Of a stretch of DNA of 35,533 bases, positions 1,356-35,533 are shown piece after piece. The translations under genes were made by a program, and so were the position numbers. The notes beneath the pieces were generated by a model. That model was not told where the DNA came from. It ran no database searches and saw only the letters and a list, made by a program, of their open reading frames with translations. The number at the start of each line of letters is the position of its first letter. Position 1 is the stretch's first letter. This stretch comes from a virus, in IMG/VR virus record IMGVR_UViG_3300012831_000003. One strand, written 5' to 3'.

Positions 1356-1868
1356 TCAATGTTTGGTGGGGCCGTCGTCGATTTCCTTTACAGAATCGCA
1401 GAACTCGCCAAGCGTTTGGCTTACTTCTTCGGGCGAAGCGCCATCATCCAACTGTTCGCGAATCGCGGCGCTTGCTTTTGCAATGGTCGCATGCAAAGTC
1501 ATCGCTTTTCGGAAAAAGTCCGCTTGCATCGCGCCCTGCTCTTCGGGTGTCATTGGTTCGCCCGCTTCGCTTGCCTCTTTGGCCGCCACAAAGGTGGCTT
1601 GAATGGCGCGCGTCATTGCGTCCAGCACCATGACCACCTCAACCGCACCATACGGGCCGAACCCGCGTACAAGGCCGCCGGCCAATGCCTGTGCGAAAGA
1701 CTGGCCAAACACCACGGCGGTGTCGGGGAAATCCGGACGATCCCTTTCCTTTTCCAGCCCGTCCACCATCGCGGACACAATGGCAAAACTACGGTCAACC
1801 GCCGCGCGTTCGGCCGGGTCGGGGTTGTCGTTATATCTGGCGCTGAATTTAACTTCGGGCTTCATCAT
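1356..1868 (-). CDS. Hypothetical helical protein, tandem paralogue B
   Basis: ATGATG start overlaps the TAA of the upstream gene (TAATG). Clear similarity to 835..1344 along most of its length. Confidence 0.75.
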   Translation of the reverse strand: MMKPEVKFSARYNDNPDPAERAAVDRSFAIVSAMVDGLEKERDRPDFPDTAVVFGQSFAQALAGGLVRGFGPYGAVEVVMVLDAMTRAIQATFVAAKEASEAGEPMTPEEQGAMQADFFRKAMTLHATIAKASAAIREQLDDGASPEEVSQTLGEFCDSVKEIDDGPTKH

Positions 1869-2383
1869 TACGGGTTCCCCATCGCTACAGGTTGACCGGC
1901 ACCGGCCGGCAGGCGGCTTGCCCATTTCTTCATCTGCTTGCCTTTCAGCTTCACCGCAGGCCCGATGCTCGCGCCATCGGTCGCGGCCACATAGGTGCGG
2001 TCGGCACCTGCCAAGCGGTCAATGATCGCGCGATCCAATTTCACAAAAACCGTGGTGGTGGGCATACACGCCCCCACCAGGACGGTGCCCCAAAAACAGT
2101 TGGACGCGGAACTGCCCGCATACACCGGCAGACGGAACGGCGCTTGCCCTTCAATCCGGAAGCTCACTTCGGTGGCGCTGATTTTGCCGGCGTCGGCATC
2201 GGATAGCAGCACCAGCACCGGCTGCCCATCGATGGTGGCAAAGCGCAAATTAGCCTGCCATCCCATTTCGGCGCCGCTGTACAGGCACACGGTTTGGCCG
2301 GTCGCCTTGTTGATGTTGCAGGCGGTTGCGGTGAAGGCCGCGCCCAGGGCGAGCGCAGCAACGATGATGCGAATAGCTTTCAT
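1868..2383 (-). CDS. Secreted protein, candidate lipoprotein
   Basis: N-terminus MKAIRIIVAALALGAAFTATAC: a basic residue, a hydrophobic core, then a Cys at position 22. The lipobox is non-canonical (ATAC). Confidence 0.7.
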   Translation of the reverse strand: MKAIRIIVAALALGAAFTATACNINKATGQTVCLYSGAEMGWQANLRFATIDGQPVLVLLSDADAGKISATEVSFRIEGQAPFRLPVYAGSSASNCFWGTVLVGACMPTTTVFVKLDRAIIDRLAGADRTYVAATDGASIGPAVKLKGKQMKKWASRLPAGAGQPVAMGNP

Positions 2384-2405: not shown

Positions 2406-2427
2406 AAAAGGCGCCCTTGTGGGCGCC
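2406..2427 (-). terminator. Rho-independent terminator after the moron gene
   Basis: GGCGCCC (2410-2416) pairs with GGGCGCC (2421-2427) around loop TTGT. The minus strand continues TTTTGCTTT. Confidence 0.65.
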
Positions 2428-2434
2428 GGGTGGG

Positions 2435-2797
2435 TTACTTGCCTTCTAGCGATGCCAGCACGCGCACCGCGTCGTCGCGTTCCGTCTGCCACCACGTCAA
2501 CCGGTCAACCACAGACATGGTTTCGCCGTTGGCGTCGGGCCAGTGGTGGGCCACCAGCCTATCGGCATCTTCGCGGGTGTACAGACTCGGCATGCGATTG
2601 GGATACGGGCCAAGGGCCATCACCGGGTTGCCGGTGTCCGGATCGGTCATATGGAATACCCCGCGACAGTTCCACAGGCTGGAAACCACGGCCCAGTTGT
2701 GGGAAACGAGCGCATTTGATTTCAGGTACATGTCGCAGGTTTCGATGCGCTCTTGGGCGCTTTGGCGAACTTCGGCGATAGCGGCGGCGGTATTCAT
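2435..2797 (-). CDS. Hypothetical cytoplasmic protein (single-gene moron), 120 aa
   Basis: ATG at 2797 (MNTAAAIAEV...). High GC3 and no TM segment. Flanked by its own promoter and by terminators on both sides. Confidence 0.7.
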   Translation of the reverse strand: MNTAAAIAEVRQSAQERIETCDMYLKSNALVSHNWAVVSSLWNCRGVFHMTDPDTGNPVMALGPYPNRMPSLYTREDADRLVAHHWPDANGETMSVVDRLTWWQTERDDAVRVLASLEGK

Positions 2798-2825: not shown

Positions 2826-2854
2826 ATCTTACATGCGCCTAATTCTAGGCGCAA
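2826..2854 (-). promoter_or_regulatory. Sigma-70-type promoter with embedded palindromic operator
   Basis: The minus strand reads TTGCGC-N17-TAAGAT. The spacer carries GCGCCT-AGAATT-AGGCGC (2835-2852). Architecture matches 6671-6699. Confidence 0.65.
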
Positions 2855-2866
2855 CTTACGGGGCAC

Positions 2867-2900
2867 AAAAAAGGCCGGCGCATTCAGGCACCGGCCTTTT
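2867..2900. terminator. Bidirectional rho-independent terminator
   Basis: AAAAAA-GGCCGG (2873-2878)...CCGGCC (2891-2896)-TTTT. On the minus strand the stem is followed by TTTTTTG. Confidence 0.7.
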
Positions 2901-5079: not shown

Positions 5080-5565
5080 CTAGGCCGACTGTTTCTTTCG
5101 CCACTCGGCCGCCAGCTCCCGCCGGAACTTGGCATTACTCCATCGTTCGGCCATCAACCGCAGGCCACCATCGCGCACTTGCATGATCGGCATGGCCAAG
5201 GGCGCGGCCAACTCAATCTTAAGGTGTAGCCCACATTGGCTACAGGTCACGATTCCAACAAATGCTTTTCCCGTTTCTTCCCGTCGCACGGTAGTGTCAA
5301 GGCGCACGGGGCCATGGCAATGCGGGCACGGTTGTTGGGTGACCTGATCCTGCGGAGGCGTGGCCAGCCATGTCTGCACGCGGCGGGAGAATATCCACCC
5401 AATCAGCATGCCCAGGATGAGCCCCACCACGGCGCCCACAGTCGGGGTGATGAAACCCAGTAGCTGGAAACCGATCACAGAACCGCAGGCCGCTACCACC
5501 GGCACAAGGAAATGGTGGACGAAACGCGGAGGGCTTTCCGGAACGTTGCTATAGCGCGGCATCAT
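5080..5565 (-). CDS. Membrane-anchored zinc-ribbon protein
   Basis: The ATGATG start overlaps the upstream TGA. Two hydrophobic helices are followed by CPHC-X27-CSQC. Confidence 0.65.
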   Translation of the reverse strand: MMPRYSNVPESPPRFVHHFLVPVVAACGSVIGFQLLGFITPTVGAVVGLILGMLIGWIFSRRVQTWLATPPQDQVTQQPCPHCHGPVRLDTTVRREETGKAFVGIVTCSQCGLHLKIELAAPLAMPIMQVRDGGLRLMAERWSNAKFRRELAAEWRKKQSA

Positions 5566-5762
5566 GGCGTGTCGCCGGTAGGTGTAACCATTCGGGCGGC
5601 CCAGCCTTTGCGGGTGCAGTAAGTGCTCACCCGTTCGCGGCTCCAGCCGTGCATATATTTCAGGATCGGGGCCGCTTCGGTCACCCGGTCGGTTTTGCTG
5701 CACCACACAAGCCCGGCCACGAAATGTGGCGCGGTGATTCTGACAAGCTCAACGTTTCCCAT
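5562..5762 (-). CDS. Hypothetical protein
   Basis: 66-aa ORF coupled to its neighbours. Confidence 0.55.
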   Translation of the reverse strand: MGNVELVRITAPHFVAGLVWCSKTDRVTEAAPILKYMHGWSRERVSTYCTRKGWAARMVTPTGDTP

Positions 5763-6021
5763 CGTCGCGGGGAAGCACTACCGGCGCCACATCGGCCCAG
5801 CGCTCCAAAACGTCCTGTAGCCATCCCGCACCGGTCGCCCGGTCAACATTGGCGATGTACTTCACGTTATGGCCTTCTACACAGGTCACTAGCATGAACG
5901 CCACGCGCTCACCGGCCGCCGCGTCGAGGGCTTCGCTAAGCGCGCGCGCTATCGGCGGCAGGATTTCCGACACCGCCACACTGGCGTCGCTGTGCTTGAT
6001 GTCGCGGTCGGTGTCGCTCAT
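5749..6021 (-). CDS. Hypothetical acidic protein
   Basis: 90-aa ORF. ATGA overlap with the upstream gene. Confidence 0.6.
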   Translation of the reverse strand: MSDTDRDIKHSDASVAVSEILPPIARALSEALDAAAGERVAFMLVTCVEGHNVKYIANVDRATGAGWLQDVLERWADVAPVVLPRDDGKR

Positions 6022-6218
6022 GGCACGGGCTCTTCTTCGGCATCCGGGTATTTCGTGCGGGTCATCGGCAACAGGTACAGGGCAAGGATCACCCCGACCA
6101 CATGGTCGGCCGGTACGGCAGCCAACTCGGCGATGCGCTCAATCGATCCGGCAAGCTCGGTTGCCACGCGGATGCGCACCTCTGCCTTGGCATCTTTCAT
6201 TGTCATGTCGGCTTCCAT
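6018..6218 (-). CDS. Hypothetical protein (start uncertain: 6218 or 6206)
   Basis: The ATG at 6218 overlaps the Cro-like stop (TGATG). The ATG at 6206 has GGAAG upstream. Confidence 0.5.
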   Translation of the reverse strand: MEADMTMKDAKAEVRIRVATELAGSIERIAELAAVPADHVVGVILALYLLPMTRTKYPDAEEEPVP

Positions 6219-6490
6219 CACGTAAACGGCAAGCGGCGTTGTGGTTTTTGTTGGTGTCGGGAAAGCCACTTTTCGGTGAACTCGCGACGCATGCGCACAT
6301 CTTCGTCAAAGTTGGCCAGCCAATCGGCGAACTCTGCCGGGAACGCCCGCGCCACCATCATGGCGTGGTGCGCCGGTATCGCCTCATCGCGTGCCAGCCG
6401 GTAAATAGATTGCGTCGATACGCCCAAGAATAGTGCCAGTGCTGCGGGCCGTCCCCCAAACGGCGCCGCCGCCTCGTCTCGCGTCATCAT
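6218..6490 (-). CDS. Cro/YdaS-like HTH regulator, first gene of the leftward early operon
   Basis: AALALFLGVSTQSIYRLARDEAIP reads as an HTH. Divergent from the plus-strand regulator gene across a 250-bp gap. Confidence 0.7.
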   Translation of the reverse strand: MMTRDEAAAPFGGRPAALALFLGVSTQSIYRLARDEAIPAHHAMMVARAFPAEFADWLANFDEDVRMRREFTEKWLSRHQQKPQRRLPFT

Positions 6491-6542
6491 GCCTTGCGCC
6501 CCAAGGTGCGCGGCCCATCCTGCGCCGCTGGTGTGGTGGGAG

Positions 6543-6572
6543 TTTCTACACGCCGGCCGGTGTGAATGTCAA
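6543..6572 (-). promoter_or_regulatory. Candidate early promoter for the Cro-like operon
   Basis: The minus strand reads TTGACA-N18-TAGAAA. The -10 overlaps one of two CTACACGCC repeats (6546-6554, 6607-6615). Confidence 0.4.
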
Positions 6573-6670
6573 ATCCGAATTTTTGTGAACCCCGGTCAGA
6601 AAACCCCTACACGCCCGCTTGTCACGCTTGCTTGTGTGCCACCTCCTTCACATACGGGATTTTTTGATGC

Positions 6671-6699
6671 TTGCGCCTGCGTTTAGGCGCTGTTAGCTT
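6671..6699 (+). promoter_or_regulatory. Sigma-70-type promoter with embedded palindromic operator
   Basis: TTGCGC-N17-TAGCTT. The spacer carries GCGCCT-GCGTTT-AGGCGC (6673-6690). It lies 45 nt upstream of the ATG at 6744. Confidence 0.6.
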
Positions 6700-6743
6700 T
6701 GCCCTGCGGCTGTTTGGCCGCCTCACTGACTTGGGGCACAACA

Positions 6744-8027
6744 ATGCTTGCAAAGCTCATGGACACCGCCGCGCTGAAACGCGCCTGCGGTTTGGAGACG
6801 GCGGAATATGCCAATGCGGCCACGCTCGGGTTGCTGCCCCGGGCATGCGGTCAGTTCAATGGCGTTCCGGTGTGGTTTGAAACAGACGTGCGCAAATTTG
6901 CTAATGAGGTTGGCAAAACGTTTGACGAAAGCTGGAGTGACATCCACATCACGTTGGCTTCTCAGATCACAAAAAGCGCGCCGGAAGCGCAGCAGGTTGC
7001 GCACGCGGAAGCTGATCGGCAGTGGCCCGAAGAAATGCACCAGGAACTTGCAGCGCAATACATGGGATGTGGCTCACAGGTGTTGCAGAAAGGCGTCAAG
7101 GCCGGTGTGTTGAACTTCCAACGCGATGGCCGGTTGATAGTGTTTCGTAAGGAAGACTTGGACGCCTATCGGGAACTGCCCATCTTCTCTCGGCGCATCA
7201 CGCGAAAGAAGCACAAGAAAGGCGACGCGGTGGTAGTGGCCAAACCTGCCGAACCGCACAACAAGGCCGCCATGGCCAACGCGCAAACCCTGTTGACGGA
7301 AAAAGGCGCGGCCGATTTCTTGGGCATCCACTACGGCGCGTTGGCGCTCTCTCGCAAGTATGGAACCGGCCCGGTGGTAGCAATCGATTCCGCCGGCGTG
7401 CCGCGTTATCGCCTGTGCGATCTACAGGAATTTGCCGAACGTCATTTGAAATCGCATGACCACACCGACACGCGCAGCCGCACCGAAGTGGTCAAATCGG
7501 TTCGGCTTGATGGCACAACGGTAGCGGTCTCCAAAGCCGTGGCGAAGTCCACCGGCGAAGTGGTGCCCGCCCAGGTCAAGCCGGTGGAACCGCAGACCGA
7601 TACCGCCCCCATCTTTCCCAAGCTGGCCAAGCTGGCCGCCGACAAGCTCTTGTCGATGGATGAGGTTGCGCAGTACCTCGGCGTAAAGGGGAAATCCATC
7701 GGCAATTGGCGCATGCGTGACGCCTTCGCCGATGCGGATGCAATGGTGCCAGGGCGCGGCAGTGAGGCGCCGCGTTGGCGGGCCGCTACTGTCCTGCAAT
7801 GGGCAGTGAAGAATGCGCACCGCATTGAACGGTCGAAGGCACAGATTGCGCATGGCCACAATGGCCCCGACGGCAAGGTAAAGAATGCCCACATCGGCAA
7901 TGGTGTGAAGAATGGCACCCGCCGCCCAGGCGCCAAAAAGGTGTTGAAAGCCACCAGCGCGCGGCGCCAGCCCACGCGCGTTGCCAACAGCCGCGCCACG
8001 CTTGGCGGCGCCCGCGTTCGCCATTAG
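6744..8027 (+). CDS. Multi-HTH DNA-binding protein (four excisionase/MerR-type HTH repeats); candidate prophage repressor
   Basis: ATG at 6744 with GGGG 7 nt upstream. There are four repeats of the pattern aliphatic-x-x-x-E/A-A-A-x-Y/F-L-G...W/F/Y: MDTAALKRACG.., ELAAQYMGCG.., GAADFLGIHY.., MDEVAQYLGV... The tail is basic. No S24 peptidase motif. Confidence 0.75.
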   Translation: MLAKLMDTAALKRACGLETAEYANAATLGLLPRACGQFNGVPVWFETDVRKFANEVGKTFDESWSDIHITLASQITKSAPEAQQVAHAEADRQWPEEMHQELAAQYMGCGSQVLQKGVKAGVLNFQRDGRLIVFRKEDLDAYRELPIFSRRITRKKHKKGDAVVVAKPAEPHNKAAMANAQTLLTEKGAADFLGIHYGALALSRKYGTGPVVAIDSAGVPRYRLCDLQEFAERHLKSHDHTDTRSRTEVVKSVRLDGTTVAVSKAVAKSTGEVVPAQVKPVEPQTDTAPIFPKLAKLAADKLLSMDEVAQYLGVKGKSIGNWRMRDAFADADAMVPGRGSEAPRWRAATVLQWAVKNAHRIERSKAQIAHGHNGPDGKVKNAHIGNGVKNGTRRPGAKKVLKATSARRQPTRVANSRATLGGARVRH

Positions 8028-8055
8028 CCGTTGGGGGTAACACAGAGCATGACTT

Positions 8056-8081
8056 GGGCGCCCTTCCCGGCGCCCTTTTTT
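8056..8081 (+). terminator. Rho-independent terminator after the plus-strand gene
   Basis: GGGCGCC (8056-8062), loop CTTCCC, GGCGCCC (8069-8075), then TTTTTT (8076-8081). Confidence 0.75.
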
Positions 8082-8274
8082 ATGCGTCAGCGGCGGTCGG
8101 TTCAACAAGGCGCGGGCCGCGAGGTTCTACCGGGGCCGGCTCCAGCGCGCGCGCCAACGTGGCCGCCGCTTCGTTGGCGAAACGCGCCGTGGGTTCAGCC
8201 GCAGTCGGCGGCAGCGTGCGCAAGAAATCGTTGGCGATGTTGGTTAGGTAATTCAAAGCTTCATGCGGGGTCAT
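8080..8274 (-). CDS. Small hypothetical protein downstream of the tail fibre
   Basis: ATG at 8274 with GAGG 8 nt upstream. 64 aa, MTPHEALNYLTNIANDF... Confidence 0.55.
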   Translation of the reverse strand: MTPHEALNYLTNIANDFLRTLPPTAAEPTARFANEAAATLARALEPAPVEPRGPRLVEPTAADA

Positions 8275-8284
8275 GGATGTAGCC

Positions 8285-10648
8285 TCAGTGCAGAGTGTCA
8301 TTTTCCAGCCGGCGCAAACGGGTGTTGATGCCGGCCACCATTTCGGCCAACAGGCCGACAATATCCAGGCCCAGGGGCTGGCCCTCTCCAAAGTCGCGCA
8401 CATAGCTGGGCGCCAACTCTTGCCAATCCTGCGCCATGGAACCGGTCAACAAGGGCGAGTCCTTTTCGGCGCCTTTCATCCGGTAGGTGTACAGGTGCAA
8501 GTGGTCGGCCAAATCTTCGCGCACGTCAATTTCGGTAATGTCCTGCTTGTGGTCGCGGTCGCACGTCGGGGTGAACTGGGGTGCGGTGCAACCGGTGGTG
8601 AAGATCGACAGGTGCGGCGTTGGCGTGGGGCCGGTACCGGTGGCCACGGCAAAGCGAATGGATGGATCGCCTTGCATCCACATGCGCGCCTGCACGCCAC
8701 TGTCCTGCATCGTCAGGCCACCACCGAAGGCGCCTTGCAGGTTGATGGCGGCCTCGCCCACGTTATTGCCATTCGAGCCGTTACCCACCATGCCCACAAC
8801 ACCAATGGCATTAATCCACATTGCCTCCTGTGCGCCTGCACCCAAAGCCACGCGGCGGTCACCACTGCCGAAATTGATAAAGCCCAGGGTGCTTGCATCC
8901 ACCGTGCGCCGCAGTGACCACGTGGCGGTATCCCACGCGCTGCCATTGGCAGTGCGCAGCATGTACATATTCAGCGCGTCCACGTTGTTGGTGGCCACAG
9001 TGAGGCGGAAATAGTTAGCACCTGCTCCCGCCGTGGTTCCCAACGCGGCATTGGTCTTGAGGTTGAACGTGCCGGCATTGCTGATTTCAAAGCGCCCGCC
9101 GCCGTTGGCGTTTTCCATCCACATGGACTGTGCAGAGTCCACCGCCACGCGCCCGTAGGTGTTGCCGGCGAATTCCCAACTGGCCACCGCATCAAGCGAG
9201 GCGCGGAAGATGCGGGTGCGCGACGCTTCAACAATGAAAGTGTTGCCGCCGGGCCCAGGCATGTTGATGACGGAACCATCAGCCGAAACCGTCCACGACG
9301 CGGTAATAGCGCTATCGCTGGCGCGCATCCAGGTAATCGAGCCGGTGGACATGATGATAGCCGCGCCGGAAAACGACACGGAATTTTGCACATTCCAGCC
9401 ACCGGCAGAATCCAGCACACGCGCCCACTGCGCTGGGGTGAACGCGCCGGCCGCTACAGCGCCAGGGGCGCGGTAGACATAGCCACCCGATGCCACGTAA
9501 TCGCCAAGCGCATAGGCCGCCGTGGTGGAATGGAAGCGCACAGGCAACATGGCGACATTGGCACCGGATGCGCCCACGAAAAGCTGCATCCGGCCCAGGT
9601 CGGTGCCCAACTGCCCGGTGGCCATCGCGGCAAGGTCGGCACCCGTGGTGCCACGCTGCGGCGAGATGACTTGATTGGTCGAGTCAATGACAAAGTTGGT
9701 CAACGGCACCGGCGTGCCCGCACGCCCCGCAATGCCGTTCACATTGTTGATCGCAAAGCCGCCCATGTTCAGGGGGCCCGCCATGGCCACGGTGCCATCG
9801 GTGCGCAGGAACCCCTGCATATTGATGGTGTTACCCATGCGGAACCACGCACCGCTGCCGTTGTAGGCAATCGAATCGCCGTTGAACACCGTTACGCCAG
9901 CAAGCGTGCCGGTCAGGTAGGTGTAACCGCCGGTGGTAAGCCCATCGATCACCCAAAAGTCGCCGATGGCCGGCGCCCCGCCACTGCCGTGGCCACCGGT
10001 GGTGGGGTATTCAAAATTCACCGCCGGGCGGAACGTGCCGCAGTACCGCAGGCCGCTTGCCACGCTCGGAATGAATGACGGGTCGATAGTGCCATCGGCC
10101 AACGTGCGCACCACGATGCCGGGCGCAGCCACCGTGCCGGTGGCCTGCCACGTCGGCAGTCCACCCGACACCGACATGATGGAATTGGCCACGCCGATGG
10201 CCATGGATGTCAACCAGCCCCCAGCGGCACCCACCAGCAGCGAACCGGCGGTGGCCGTGGGCAGTCGCACCTGATAGAGCGTGTCCGCCCACTGACGCGA
10301 CAGGGCGGCGTTGTTTGCCGGCTCATTGGCGATTAGGTTTAGAACACCGGTCATCGTGTCGCCGGCACGCAATACGCGCGTGTTGGCGTTTGCGTTGGCC
10401 GCTGACGCGGCATCGCGCGCTACCTGATCGTTGCCAATGTCAGACAGCCACGCGCTATTGGCCTGATTACGACGGCGCATAACGCCATCCCCACCGCCAG
10501 ACAGATCAAGCCACAGCATGCCGGGGAAAGTGACAGCAGGTTGCGTGGTGCCACTGTTGACGGTCACCACGGCCTGCAATGCGTTGTTCAAATCCGTGCG
10601 GAAGTTTAAGCCGGTGTCGTTGGCAATGTTGTAATCATGTTGCGGCAT
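8285..10648 (-). CDS. Tail fibre with C-terminal intramolecular-chaperone (peptidase S74-like) domain
   Basis: The N-terminus MPQHDYNIANDTGLNFRTDLNNALQ is typical of fibre anchors. The body is Gly/Ala/Thr-rich. The last 92 aa (CDRDHKQDI...YTYRMK...GSMAQDWQELAPSYV...) fit the S74 pattern. Confidence 0.85.
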   Translation of the reverse strand: MPQHDYNIANDTGLNFRTDLNNALQAVVTVNSGTTQPAVTFPGMLWLDLSGGGDGVMRRRNQANSAWLSDIGNDQVARDAASAANANANTRVLRAGDTMTGVLNLIANEPANNAALSRQWADTLYQVRLPTATAGSLLVGAAGGWLTSMAIGVANSIMSVSGGLPTWQATGTVAAPGIVVRTLADGTIDPSFIPSVASGLRYCGTFRPAVNFEYPTTGGHGSGGAPAIGDFWVIDGLTTGGYTYLTGTLAGVTVFNGDSIAYNGSGAWFRMGNTINMQGFLRTDGTVAMAGPLNMGGFAINNVNGIAGRAGTPVPLTNFVIDSTNQVISPQRGTTGADLAAMATGQLGTDLGRMQLFVGASGANVAMLPVRFHSTTAAYALGDYVASGGYVYRAPGAVAAGAFTPAQWARVLDSAGGWNVQNSVSFSGAAIIMSTGSITWMRASDSAITASWTVSADGSVINMPGPGGNTFIVEASRTRIFRASLDAVASWEFAGNTYGRVAVDSAQSMWMENANGGGRFEISNAGTFNLKTNAALGTTAGAGANYFRLTVATNNVDALNMYMLRTANGSAWDTATWSLRRTVDASTLGFINFGSGDRRVALGAGAQEAMWINAIGVVGMVGNGSNGNNVGEAAINLQGAFGGGLTMQDSGVQARMWMQGDPSIRFAVATGTGPTPTPHLSIFTTGCTAPQFTPTCDRDHKQDITEIDVREDLADHLHLYTYRMKGAEKDSPLLTGSMAQDWQELAPSYVRDFGEGQPLGLDIVGLLAEMVAGINTRLRRLENDTLH

Positions 10649-16818: not shown

Positions 16819-17330
16819 TCAGTTCTCCGGTCGTATGCCCATGGCAGCGGCGATGCCATCGGCTCCAATGTCGTCAATGCTGGGCGGCTCACTGGCCGCT
16901 GATTCTTCGCGTAAAAACATGATCCACTTGGCCAATTCGCTGGCCGGCATTTCGGCTTTGAGCCGATAGACCGGTGTGGACAGCCGCTGTGCCAGCAGCA
17001 TCAACAGGCGGTCAATCGGCTTTAGGCGTTTTTTGTTTCGTCTTCCTCTTCCTCCGGAATGATGCTGTTGATGCGCAATGCCTGCGCACCCAGCCGCATC
17101 AATGCGCGGAACTTGCTCGCTGGCAGCGCTCGGATTTCCTCTTCGCTGAATCGCTGGCCGTTCACCCGAAGGGAAACGGCCAGCGTGGCCAGCATCAGCG
17201 CCCCGTTTTTGCCCTGCTGCGCCACTTCAAAAAGTGGCAGCAGTTCGTCCACGGTGCATTCTTCCAACACCACCTCTTCGCCCAGCTCCGGGGCATCCAT
17301 TTTTTCAACGCGGCGTGTTTGTTCAGACAT
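16819..17330 (-). CDS. Tail assembly chaperone frameshift product (gpGT-like), -1 shift at 17028-17034
   Basis: The -1 frame is open from the slip site (..KKRLKPIDRLLMLLAQRL..) down to the stop at 16819. Confidence 0.7.
17022..17330 (-). CDS. Tail assembly chaperone (gpG-like)
   Basis: 102 aa, acidic. Located between the major tail protein and the tape measure. Ends 2 codons after a slippery heptamer. Confidence 0.8.
   Translation of the reverse strand: MSEQTRRVEKMDAPELGEEVVLEECTVDELLPLFEVAQQGKNGALMLATLAVSLRVNGQRFSEEEIRALPASKFRALMRLGAQALRINSIIPEEEEDETKNA
17028..17034 (-). other. Programmed -1 ribosomal frameshift heptamer A_AAA_AAC
   Basis: The minus strand reads ACA AAA AAC GCC TAA in the G frame, which fits the X_XXY_YYZ pattern. 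Confidence 0.7.
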
Positions 17331-18440: not shown

Positions 18441-18931
18441 GTTGGAAACCTCAACTTGTCGATTTCCTTAGACATGGTGTCGCGGATTTTTTCGGTCACC
18501 TGCCCATAAGTGGCGTCCATCGCTGGGCCAAGGAACGGGCGACCGGCATACACCCACCCATTGCGGTGGAAGCCGTATTCAATGAAATGTGCGTGCGGCG
18601 CCTTGTTGGAAAACTTGCCTTTGACGCGCTGGCCCCGCGCCACAATGTTGAGCCGGTAGGCGTTGCGGTCATCGCGTGGGATGTACCCTTTGCCAATCTT
18701 GATTGACTTTGGGATGCGCCCATAGCGCAGATAGAGTTGCCCATTACGGTCACGCACTGCGCCCTGATCGCCCAGGCCCAGGGAACGCGCATTGCGGGCA
18801 CCAGCCGTGCGCACGATGCGCGCGCCGGCCGCCATGCCTTTCTTGATGATGCGGCCGACAATCTTGTCGGAACCGAACGCAATCAGGTTCCGTTGCAGCT
18901 CGGCCAGCCCGATGACTTTGGTGTCAACCAT
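18437..18931 (-). CDS. HK97 gp10-family neck protein
   Basis: APHAHFIEYGFH...GRPFLGPAM matches the YA..EFG...PFL.PA signature of the family. Confidence 0.8.
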   Translation of the reverse strand: MVDTKVIGLAELQRNLIAFGSDKIVGRIIKKGMAAGARIVRTAGARNARSLGLGDQGAVRDRNGQLYLRYGRIPKSIKIGKGYIPRDDRNAYRLNIVARGQRVKGKFSNKAPHAHFIEYGFHRNGWVYAGRPFLGPAMDATYGQVTEKIRDTMSKEIDKLRFPT

Positions 18932-27538: not shown

Positions 27539-27853
27539 TTAAAAAAGGGCGGGGATGGGGGGTCGGTTAGATCGGTTCGTCTCCAATTTTTTTGATCCCC
27601 CCCCGGGGTTTTGTCCCCCGGCCGGTTCAATGCGAGCGCGAATGGCTTTCAACACTTCCATTCCATACGCGCCCACCTCGCCTGCCATGGCACGGGTGTG
27701 CAGGGTGTGCCGTGCTTGCAGTTGGCGGACGCGCTCGCGCGTGCATCCCAGGCGCTGGCCTACAGCCTCCAGCGTCAAACCTTGCGCGCGATACGCGGCC
27801 ACCACTGCATCCCGTACCCGTGCCCGCTCTTGGATCGCGTCACGGTCTGTCAC
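27539..27853 (-). CDS. Sigma-70 region-4-like HTH protein
   Basis: LTLEAVGQRLGCTRERVRQLQARH matches the region 4.2 pattern TLEEIG...GVTRERVRQIE. GTG at 27853 with AGGGG 8 nt upstream. The 3' end runs through homopolymer tracts. Confidence 0.55.
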   Translation of the reverse strand: MTDRDAIQERARVRDAVVAAYRAQGLTLEAVGQRLGCTRERVRQLQARHTLHTRAMAGEVGAYGMEVLKAIRARIEPAGGQNPGGGSKKLETNRSNRPPIPALF

Positions 27854-31050: not shown

Positions 31051-31141
31051 GAGTCACCATCCCAAGTGATGCGGCCCGAAGGCCGGCGGTTTTGACTTCG
31101 ACTGTCTTTCACTCGCGCGCCCGCGCGTATGGATATGGAAA

Positions 31142-31163
31142 GCTTTTAAAAGCTTTTAAAAGC
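31142..31163. repeat. Two overlapping copies of the perfect palindrome GCTTTTAAAAGC
   Basis: 31142-31153 and 31152-31163. This is the most AT-rich stretch seen in the window. Confidence 0.9.
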
Positions 31164-31178
31164 GCAAGGCGCGTGCCA
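31164..31178 (-). promoter_or_regulatory. Sigma-54-type -24/-12 element candidate
   Basis: The minus strand reads TGGCAC-GCGCC-TTGC, an exact core consensus spacing. It points at the 30862..31050 operon. Confidence 0.35.
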
Positions 31179-31265
31179 AATTTTTCGCGTCACCCTCTGG
31201 AAAACTCGGGCAATTTCGATCACCCTGTGTCATGCGTGATGCGGTGACTTCCATCCGCATGCGTC

Positions 31266-33428: not shown

Positions 33429-33776
33429 CTGTCAATCCGGCTTAGTCATGCTCGGGGTGACAACACTGCGCCTCACTGCGACGAAAACAAATACACAGGT
33501 CGCGTGACAGTTCTTTTTGCGCGCACACGTTGCACACGCGAGTTGAACAGCGCGCGTACCGGCTCATGGGTGATGCAGGGTGATTGTTCAAAGCGCGATG
33601 CCACCTTCGGGTGGTGCATCAGCTTCTCAGTAAAATTACCGTGCGCAGAAATTGACACGCGCGCGTTTCCAAACGCATTGCGCTCGGCGCAGGGTAGGCG
33701 TAGCTTCGCGGGGCAGCATCCGGATTTGCTGCCGCGTTCGGTTCGCATCAGGCCCTAGTCAGCCGAGAAACGAAAA

Positions 33777-33804
33777 GGGCGCCCTTCGCGGGGCGCCCTT
33801 TTTT
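33777..33804. terminator. Bidirectional rho-independent terminator after int
   Basis: GGGCGCCC (33777-33784), loop TTCGCG, GGGCGCCC (33791-33798). Flanked by AAAA upstream and TTTTTT downstream. Confidence 0.7.
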
Positions 33805-33834
33805 GTGTTCCACGCGGAACTAAAAAGCGGTTTG

Positions 33835-35280: not shown

Positions 35281-35355
35281 GGCGTGTTGTCCCGTCTGGC
35301 CGGGGCAACTGCACCCGGCTGGGTTCAATATCGCCCACCAGCGCCGCCCCGCGCA

Positions 35356-35383
35356 ATGGGTACAGTCTGGGTACATGGGTTCA
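35356..35383. promoter_or_regulatory. TGGGTWCA motif triplet (int-proximal side of att gap)
   Basis: TGGGTACA at 35357-35364 and 35368-35375, TGGGTTCA at 35376-35383. The 12-mer ATGGGTACAGTC (35356-35367) recurs at 161-172. Confidence 0.6.
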
Positions 35384-35410
35384 GTCCATAAGCCGATTCA
35401 GGCCATTTCG

Positions 35411-35533
35411 GTCACCCTAGATCATGCTGGGTACAATTCGAGGAAGTGACGCAAACCACTTAAAACAAGGCGTTTTTTCACAAAACAGCTTGTTTTAAAG
35501 GGTCTGAAAATCCGTGTACTGTTTCCTGTGGAA
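35411..35533. repeat. Terminal direct repeat, copy 2 (identical to 1..123)
   Basis: Read directly. Confidence 0.98.

Follow-up and report, generated by a model that had tools for sequence, protein, structure and literature searches.

In the immI region of phage P22, the operator bound by Arc is placed between the -35 and -10 elements of the promoter Pant. Dispersed sites for a single phage protein are also described, as the repressor of phiC31 binds conserved inverted repeats and gp71 of mycobacteriophage L5 binds stoperators. The arrangement analysed here is a fresh example of these familiar phage designs, an operator in a promoter spacer and dispersed repressor sites. It was found in a stretch of 35,533 nucleotides (nt), IMG/VR virus record IMGVR_UViG_3300012831_000003, which is referred to as the window and comes from an uncultured temperate soil phage, probably of a betaproteobacterial host. 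The element in question is a promoter-operator cassette present at site A, upstream of the gene for a 427-amino-acid (aa) protein with four helix-turn-helix (HTH) modules (the multi-HTH gene), and at site B, upstream of the gene for a 120-aa protein. We consider it reasonably probable that both sites are promoters of the sigma-70 type and that a shared dyad operator subjects them to common repression.

Site A (6671-6699, plus strand) reads TTGCGCCT GCGTTT AGGCGC TGT TAGCTT, and site B (2854-2826, minus strand) reads TTGCGCCT AGAATT AGGCGC ATG TAAGAT. Their common form is TTGCGCCT-N6-AGGCGC-N3-TA...T, and both 29-mers were as given in a preliminary description of this DNA, with an identical -35 hexamer, a 17-nt spacer, a TA...T -10 element and inverted arms in the same register. 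The features of the two sites, in which dyad positions were counted with the -10 hexamer set at -12 to -7, are the following:

6671-6676, plus strand: -35 hexamer TTGCGC of P_A, the promoter of the multi-HTH gene (TTGCGC or TTGCAT at the same place in the related contigs L017, L011 and L009)
6673-6690: candidate operator, 18-bp dyad GCGCCT-GCGTTT-AGGCGC, at -33 to -16 of P_A and centred at -24.5
6694-6699, plus strand: -10 hexamer TAGCTT of P_A, after a 17-nt spacer (TAGGTT in L017, TAGTTT in L009 and L011)
2849-2854, minus strand: -35 hexamer TTGCGC of P_B, identical in the related contig L003
2835-2852: 18-bp dyad GCGCCT-AGAATT-AGGCGC in the P_B spacer (GCGCCT-AAATTT-AGGCGC in L003)
2826-2831, minus strand: -10 hexamer TAAGAT of P_B, after a 17-nt spacer (TAGAAT in L003)

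As in P22 Arc/Pant, a short site of two-fold symmetry lies inside a core promoter, in a secondary control region of a temperate phage. In P22 a small oligomeric repressor excludes RNA polymerase, and a similar exclusion is proposed here. In contrast to P22, the same site is found at two promoters 3.8 kb apart instead of in one divergent pair, and no Arc/MetJ-type protein was found in the window. The regulators of phiC31 and L5 bind copies of a short motif at several transcription units and also around their own gene, and a single phage protein is proposed to act in this way here. However, there are only two copies here against many in those phages, both lie in promoter spacers, and the L5 sites are asymmetric and act on elongation, whereas the present dyad is symmetric. 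The centre of the dyad, at about -24.5, is also that of MerR-controlled promoters (merO, PcopA, PzntA), and the gene adjacent to site A encodes HTH_17 domains of the MerR/excisionase clan. In contrast to those promoters, the spacer is of 17 nt and not of the 19-20 nt required for activation by DNA untwisting, and neither a coiled coil nor a MerR or MerR_1 Pfam domain or effector domain was detected in the window proteins tested, which gave only HTH_17 matches.

Each site presents -35- and -10-like hexamers 17 nt apart, upstream of and facing a gene, P_A lying 44 nt before ATG 6744 and P_B 28 nt before ATG 2797. Both are intergenic and point at a start codon, and the similarity between them is confined to the cassette. 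When both strands of the 35,533 bases were scanned with GCGCCT-N6-AGGCGC, allowing up to one mismatch, matches were obtained at A and B only, in agreement with the earlier inspection by eye, which had found no third copy; with gaps of 4-8 nt, one more match with one mismatch appeared in coding sequence at 27737. In 2000 dinucleotide-preserving shuffles, at least one exact copy of the dyad was present in 25 (1.25%) and two copies in none. The looser promoter pattern TTGNNN-N16-18-TANNNT matched 11 times genome-wide, and three of these matches were intergenic, namely A, B and the following:

33678-33706, plus strand: third promoter, TTGCGC-17-TAGCTT, with the same hexamers as P_A and without the GCGCCT/AGGCGC dyad

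As the hexamers of this third promoter are identical and occur without the dyad, the promoter consensus does not by itself account for the dyad. The complete pattern TTGCGCCT-N4-TTAGGCGC-N3-TA-N3-T was also scanned against viral and metagenome collections and gave one match in each, in low-GC coding sequence (L005) and at an unrelated hairpin (L006), both dismissed as chance. A k-mer enrichment of intergenic DNA returned terminator stems and A/T repeats without further operator candidates, and a bulk search for repeats in the early regions added no information.

The cassette was then followed into related phages. The contig L003 (metagenome ENA ERZ27235513) encodes a 65%-identical homologue of the 120-aa protein (coding DNA 64% identical) and begins with g TTGCGCCT AAATTT AGGCGC AGA TAGAAT; thus, P_B in L003 retains TTGCGCCT, TTAGGCGC and TA...T. 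With respect to site B, no change was seen in the -35 hexamer, in either arm, in the TT preceding the right arm or in the T, A and last T of the -10 hexamer. The changes fell in the dyad centre, in the linker of 3 nt and in the leader, which is of 47 nt in L003 and of 28 nt in the window. In A, B and L003 the arms are identical at 12 of 12 positions and the centres are GCGTTT, AGAATT and AAATTT, respectively.

The counterpart of site A was found in L017, from the same metagenome (ERZ27235513), which carries an N-terminal fragment of the multi-HTH protein 66% identical to that of the window. Its upstream region reads TTGCGC CGGCTTTTCGGCGCTGC TAGGTT, with the ATG 44 nt further, and the spacer holds the dyad GCGCCG-GCTTTT-CGGCGC in exactly the register of the window. 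The arms differ only by T to G on the left and A to C on the right, a complementary pair of changes at symmetric positions (the innermost base of each arm); this retention of symmetry is a single event, for which the rough chance estimate is about 0.05. In the alignment of the whole intergenic region between the window and L017, the cassette and the leader stand as conserved islands amid diverged DNA. Because the arms are invariant in A, B and L003, the centres vary and the double change in L017 is symmetric, the dyad behaves as a selected site, and the comparison supports the view that the two-fold symmetry of the spacer element is under selection, as would suit the dimeric-regulator type of site suggested for it earlier. 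A chance origin of the cassette was rejected, as it is conserved at orthologous positions. Comparison with relatives gives good support to the proposed reading of promoters with a shared operator. The promoter-like character claimed for both sites was also borne out, since the hexamers of P_A and its distance to the ATG are kept in relatives and the hexamers of P_B are kept in L003.

In the mechanism that we propose, P_A and P_B would be one promoter class (TTGCGC, 17-nt spacer, TA...T) with transcription starts predicted at about 6705 (plus strand) and about 2820 (minus strand). The operator, with the core GCGCC-N8-GGCGC, would overlap the last four bases of the -35 hexamer and fill the spacer, and a dimeric DNA-binding protein on it would block RNA polymerase. 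With the same protein at both sites, repression and release would be common to the multi-HTH gene and to the unit that begins with the 120-aa gene, and the P_B unit may read through its terminator into a lipoprotein gene and on to the attachment region. The dyad would in this way be an extra control layer on two of the three promoters of this class. The bound protein is expected to repress because a 17-nt spacer is already optimal, MerR-type activation needing 19-20 nt; such activation was rejected, as the spacer is of 17 nt in A, B, L003 and L017. The preliminary description had both units expressed in the lysogen, which was not supported as stated; a dyad at -33 to -16 predicts common repression.

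A second predicted spacer operator was found at the first promoter of the leftward operon:

6543-6572, minus strand: leftward early promoter, TTGACA-18-TAGAAA (TTGACA at 6572-6567, TAGAAA at 6548-6543)

Its spacer contains a different, near-perfect 16-bp dyad (CACGCCGGCCGGTGTG, 6549-6564) that is unique in the genome. As this promoter also has a spacer dyad, putative spacer operators appear to be a habit of this phage, and, as the two dyads differ, at least two distinct dyad-reading regulators are implied. Three small HTH proteins of the window are candidate binders of the A/B dyad:

6487-6218: 89-aa Cro-like protein
825-562: 87-aa XRE-type protein, in the unit downstream of B
33428-33171: 85-aa HTH_17 protein

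Such small proteins are more natural dyad binders than the four-module winged-HTH (wHTH) product of the multi-HTH gene, which is a possible but less likely one. The unit transcribed from P_A is composed of:

6706-6721, plus strand: hairpin or dyad GCGGC-tgtttg-GCCGC in the untranslated 5' leader of the multi-HTH gene (kept in L009 and L011, both sides changed in L012)
6744-8027, plus strand: gene for the 427-aa protein, with four tandem HTH_17/excisionase-like winged-helix modules and a basic tail (Pfam and PHROG matches, AlphaFold2 model)
8056-8075, plus strand: intrinsic terminator closing the multi-HTH transcription unit (terminator scan)

The multi-HTH gene is the only clear protein gene on the plus strand. 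It is divergent from the small Cro/HTH-like first gene of the leftward operon, in the repressor position previously assigned to it, and this slot is conserved in relatives. The layout resembles lambda cI/cro in that a regulator gene on the opposite strand diverges from a small Cro/HTH-like first early gene; unlike in lambda, the promoters are about 100 bp apart with different dyads and no shared tripartite operator, and the 427-aa protein lacks a CI/S24 architecture. ATG 6744 was fixed as the start by the conserved N-terminus of the homologues (ML.K/R..D....RACG). The AlphaFold2 model showed a beta-alpha-alpha-beta-beta-alpha pattern four times, with low-confidence linkers; at a predicted local distance difference test score (pLDDT) of 44 it was too poor for a fold search, no relative was found in PDB by sequence, and no coiled coil or other dimerisation element was evident in the protein. 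The four modules are like the wHTH proteins of the BldC/Xis/RdfS type (PMC5859096, PMC11963761) in matching HTH_17/excisionase-like profiles, and differ from those single-domain proteins in being fused in one chain. Small proteins with this fold, BldC among them, are reported to bind direct repeats as head-to-tail multimers and not dyads (PMC5859096).

The family is very rare, as a set of 1.84 billion representative proteins yielded about 10 clusters at E<1e-10. Direct searches with the protein returned almost nothing, and P0002 was the only other full homologue. The protein had no match in 50,697 GenBank phage records, and back-translated patterns found nothing in viral or metagenome contigs; their sole match in a genome contig (L004) was weak and unrelated. 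Syntenic relatives were reached via homologues of the J-like tail protein; among viral contigs, this protein led to L008, a contig that stops short of the region of interest. In L009, L010, L011 and L012/L013, a multi-HTH_17 gene of 362-411 aa is present on the opposite strand between the tail-fibre block and the divergent early genes. The promoters of these genes, anchored on the -10 hexamer, compare as follows:

Window: TTGCGC-17-TAGCTT, 44 nt to the ATG
L017: TTGCGC-17-TAGGTT, 44 nt to the ATG
L011: TTGCGC-18-TAGTTT, 43 nt to the ATG
L009: TTGCAT-18-TAGTTT, 42 nt to the ATG
L012: TTGACG-17-TCACAT, 43 nt to the ATG

The leader element, as GCGGC-N5/6-GCCGC, was found on the minus strand of L009 (about 16930-16945), L011 (about 9873-9887) and L012 (about 18533-18547), where the L012 version, GCGGG-N5-CCCGC, represents a change on both sides. 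It could be a 5' stem-loop of the mRNA or a second operator at about +5 to +20. In L017, the multi-HTH frame (1340-1897) stops after 185 codons and resumes as a second open reading frame (1913-2431) of at least 173 codons, owing to a genuine split of the gene, to a frameshift or to an error in the assembly. In L014 (15661-16554, minus strand) and L015 (15927-16721, minus strand), an unrelated protein of 264-297 aa with the N-terminus MN[VI]GI.GLLPEQVR, for which no Pfam family was found, occupies the slot; therefore, the slot after the tail fibre behaves as an exchangeable cassette.

A further motif was observed in L009 and L011, in which phased direct repeats of GTCCCGC, spaced by 10 or 20 nt, directly follow the -10 hexamer of strong promoters located upstream of the int operon and of an excisionase-like gene (L009, 19779/19799, 22406/22426 and, on the minus strand, 16947; L011, 13031/13041/13051 and, on the minus strand, 10115). 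In L009, one copy lies right after the -10 hexamer of the multi-HTH promoter. Sites common to the multi-HTH promoter and to distant promoters thus recur in this phage group. The repeats are candidate operators for the four-wHTH protein in L009 and L011, and their direct orientation would fit, by analogy, the head-to-tail binding mode of BldC-like proteins.

Several points weigh against co-repression through the dyad. In 14% of the shuffles a 6-6-6 palindrome family of some kind is present two or more times (a look-elsewhere effect), which weakens the bare statistics; four of the six left-arm bases fall inside the -35 TTGCGC, which leaves only about 8 nt of the match between A and B independent; and the overall identity of the two sites, 19/29, is unexceptional, as another pair of intergenic 29-mers reaches 23/29. 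The hexamers are weak with respect to the Escherichia coli consensus (-35, 3/6; -10, 3-4/6). With bare statistics this weak, the case for the cassette therefore rests on its context and on the comparison with relatives. In these, the spacers of the multi-HTH promoters of L009-L012 were unrelated to that of the window and the dyad was found in none. From the shared sample and the equal divergence from the window, we infer that L003 and L017 are one phage; if so, the two dyads of one genome differ at the innermost arm base (T/A against G/C), and the shared recognition core may be of only 5+5 bp, a core that is not very specific. Lastly, no regulator could be tied to the dyad.

The figures on palindromes, left-arm bases and overall identity, as well as the third promoter with the same hexamers and no dyad, would suit an absence of any shared regulator, A and B being merely of the same promoter class and the palindrome a duplication remnant or a chance product, possibly with an effect on spacer DNA shape only. 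This is nevertheless very unlikely, as A, B and L003 share, in one register, the right arm AGGCGC and the left-arm CT while centres and linkers vary, the arm changes of L017 are symmetric with nothing else altered in the arms, and the lack of similarity outside the cassette disfavours a recent duplication. Even less credence, hardly any at all, can be given to a function of the inverted repeat as a hairpin (an intrinsic terminator or an RNA stability element) in place of a protein site on duplex DNA: a consensus scan flags 6673-6690 (plus strand) as terminator-like and the symmetric change of L017 would preserve a hairpin too, but no proper T-run follows either copy on either strand, no plus-strand gene upstream of A needs termination, B comes directly after a genuine terminator and, if the promoters are real, the repeat is upstream of the transcription start and hence untranscribed. 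The terminator reading was rejected on the missing T-run and the lack of anything upstream to terminate.

Which protein would read the dyad is a separate matter. The preliminary description had implied the 427-aa protein, which would then autoregulate its own promoter and control the unit of the 120-aa gene. The position of the gene directly downstream of A, in the divergent opposite-strand slot typical of an immunity repressor, speaks for this, as do the frequency of autoregulation among repressor genes, the retention of both protein and dyad in L017, and the GTCCCGC motif that the promoter of the L009 homologue shares at +1 with two distant promoters. On the other hand, four wHTH modules on disordered linkers show no evident dimerisation element, small BldC-type proteins of the same fold are reported to bind direct repeats and not dyads (PMC5859096), the recurring motif of L009 and L011 is itself a phased direct repeat and not a palindrome, and the relatives that have the protein (L009-L012) lack the spacer dyad. 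As nothing links the dyad to the 427-aa protein, we regard it as a rather unlikely binder. A broader and more speculative version, to which we give a still lower but not trivial chance, is that a portable promoter-operator plug wires the accessory module into the immunity circuit, the central regulator being a single chain of four excisionase-like wHTH modules that, itself or through a partner, would read the dyad here and the GTCCCGC direct repeats in sister lineages; if true, this would be a new phage repressor architecture with switchable site geometry. The dyad could also be bound by a dimeric regulator encoded by the host, which would wire both units to a host signal independently of phage proteins. 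In keeping with this, the 120-aa gene is accompanied by the cassette in a second phage too, as expected of a module regulated by a host factor, and no phage regulator could be assigned; we hold it improbable, as the dyad matches no host regulator box known to us, the viral and metagenome scans gave just the two unrelated chance matches, so that the motif is not widespread in those collections, and the drift of the dyad between close phages (T/A to G/C in L017) is more typical of phage-specific immunity specificities.

If co-repression of A and B by one dyad-binding protein is confirmed, it would provide a two-promoter regulon in an uncultured soil phage, together with an 18-bp site for fishing out the regulator, and would show how an accessory module by the attachment site (120-aa protein, lipoprotein and more) is tied to the gene in the repressor slot. 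The most promising lead is the very rare four-wHTH family, flagged here as a candidate immunity regulator. The present understanding of how phages control their genes is not overturned; the value of the locus is that of a clean, testable example and of an entry to the multi-wHTH family.

In lambdoid phages, a moron is an extra gene with its own promoter and terminator inserted between conserved neighbours, as defined by Hendrix and colleagues. The gene at site B had been described as a single insulated moron, and the features around it are:

2867-2896, minus strand: intrinsic terminator ending the leftward early operon, with an 8-bp stem (GGCCGGTG/CGCCGGCC) followed by T6
2435-2797, minus strand: gene for the acidic 120-aa protein (the 'moron'), first after P_B, with no Pfam or PHROG family
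2410-2427, minus strand: intrinsic terminator downstream of the 120-aa gene (none in L003, in which a 73-aa gene comes next)
1868-2383, minus strand: lipoprotein gene (lipobox of the LAACN type), after the 120-aa gene in the window, in L003 and, more distantly, in L007

Insulation holds in the window, where the gene has its own promoter, P_B, beginning 12 nt past the T-run of the strong terminator at 2867-2896, and is bracketed by that terminator and the one at 2410-2427, as in lambdoid morons. The reading as a single foreign gene was not supported as stated. In L003, the stop of the homologue overlaps the start of the 73-aa gene, with no terminator downstream of it, and the same lipoprotein gene follows (71% identical), so that, unlike a moron, the homologue is the first gene of a contiguous operon. 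A search with the lipoprotein found a distant counterpart of the pair formed by the 120-aa and lipoprotein genes in L007, without the cassette. The 120-aa gene is native in its GC content (60.6%; genome, 61.2%) and in the ACACGCC context of its ATG. No pair of relatives was found in which it is an insert between otherwise adjacent genes, and L009-L015 lack the whole module. The operon in L003, the pair in L007, the native GC content and the ACACGCC context argue against a recently acquired single-gene insert; a conserved accessory module close to the attachment site, with this gene at its head, is the better description. No relative of the 120-aa protein was found in viral contigs, and its AlphaFold2 model (pLDDT 70) had no fold match in PDB.

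The ACACGCC heptamer itself was found 0-3 nt before the ATG of at least seven minus-strand genes of the window (35280, 32817, 5565, 3977, 2797, 2383 and 1344), and it abuts the start codon of int, the lipoprotein gene, the 120-aa gene and four others. Nine of its 16 copies in the window precede a start codon, and a purine-rich Shine-Dalgarno-like stretch comes before the heptamer. The same context is present at 68 and 1191 in L003 and at 168 (minus strand) in L017, and absent from L009-L015. It may serve as a spacer of fixed length between Shine-Dalgarno sequence and ATG, mark gene boundaries at which modules are exchanged, or act in translational control.

The window is a phage genome assembled as a circle, in which the two ends (1-123 and 35411-35533) are identical over 123 nt, so that its true length is 35,410 bp; GC content is 61% and about 6% of it is intergenic. 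It encodes an integrase, terminase, portal, fused protease-capsid, tape measure, J-like tail protein and tail fibre, and the same genome was recovered in several public assemblies, such as ENA ERZ27245287 and Logan SRR6474708. No cultured phage is close: the best TerL identity, with Ralstonia and Burkholderia phages, is 46%, and a near-identity search with 5500-9500 gave no nucleotide match among GenBank phages. Nearly all genes are on the minus strand, in the following order: the divergent region (about 6490), nine small early genes and a 51-aa gene, a terminator, the 120-aa gene, a terminator, the lipoprotein gene, genes for proteins of 170, 169, 87 (XRE-type HTH) and 96 aa, a terminator, the attachment region, int, an excisionase-like gene, and then the replication, packaging, head and tail genes. 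In the probable attachment region lie three GTACCCA repeats (about 35355-35430, upstream of int) and an inverted repeat (42-96); no tRNA gene was found. Four intrinsic terminators have a near-identical stem, GGGCGCC/GGCGCCC (256-276, 2410-2427, 8056-8075 and 33779-33805), and, through these GGCGCC stems, the genome holds a second repeated 6-6-6 palindrome family.

The last of these four, a strong bidirectional terminator that also ends int, lies about 75 nt past the third promoter. Promoter and terminator (33678-33812, plus strand) would outline a candidate small RNA, about 95 nt long, with the hairpin GGCAGCA-N8-UGCUGCC on its 5' side and a fold z-score of -3.8. It matched no Rfam family at gathering score, with only sub-threshold terminator-like matches near 33770; no homologue was present in the relatives fetched, and a target search found nothing.

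Two other intergenic elements were observed. A 29-nt element with the core GGC[A/C]ATTTCG[A/G]TCACCCT is common, at 23 of 29 positions, to about 31206-31234, in the gap upstream of the 31050 gene block, and to about 35398-35426, in the region upstream of int; its core was found in no shuffle. The sequence TGGCACGCGCCTTGC (31164-31178, minus strand), intergenic and facing downstream genes, fits the sigma-54 -24/-12 consensus (TGGCAC-N5-TTGC), which has one other match in the genome, inside coding sequence. A tandem or palindromic run, GCTTTTAAAAGCTTTTAAAAGCTTT, comes directly after this sigma-54-like site (31140-31165).

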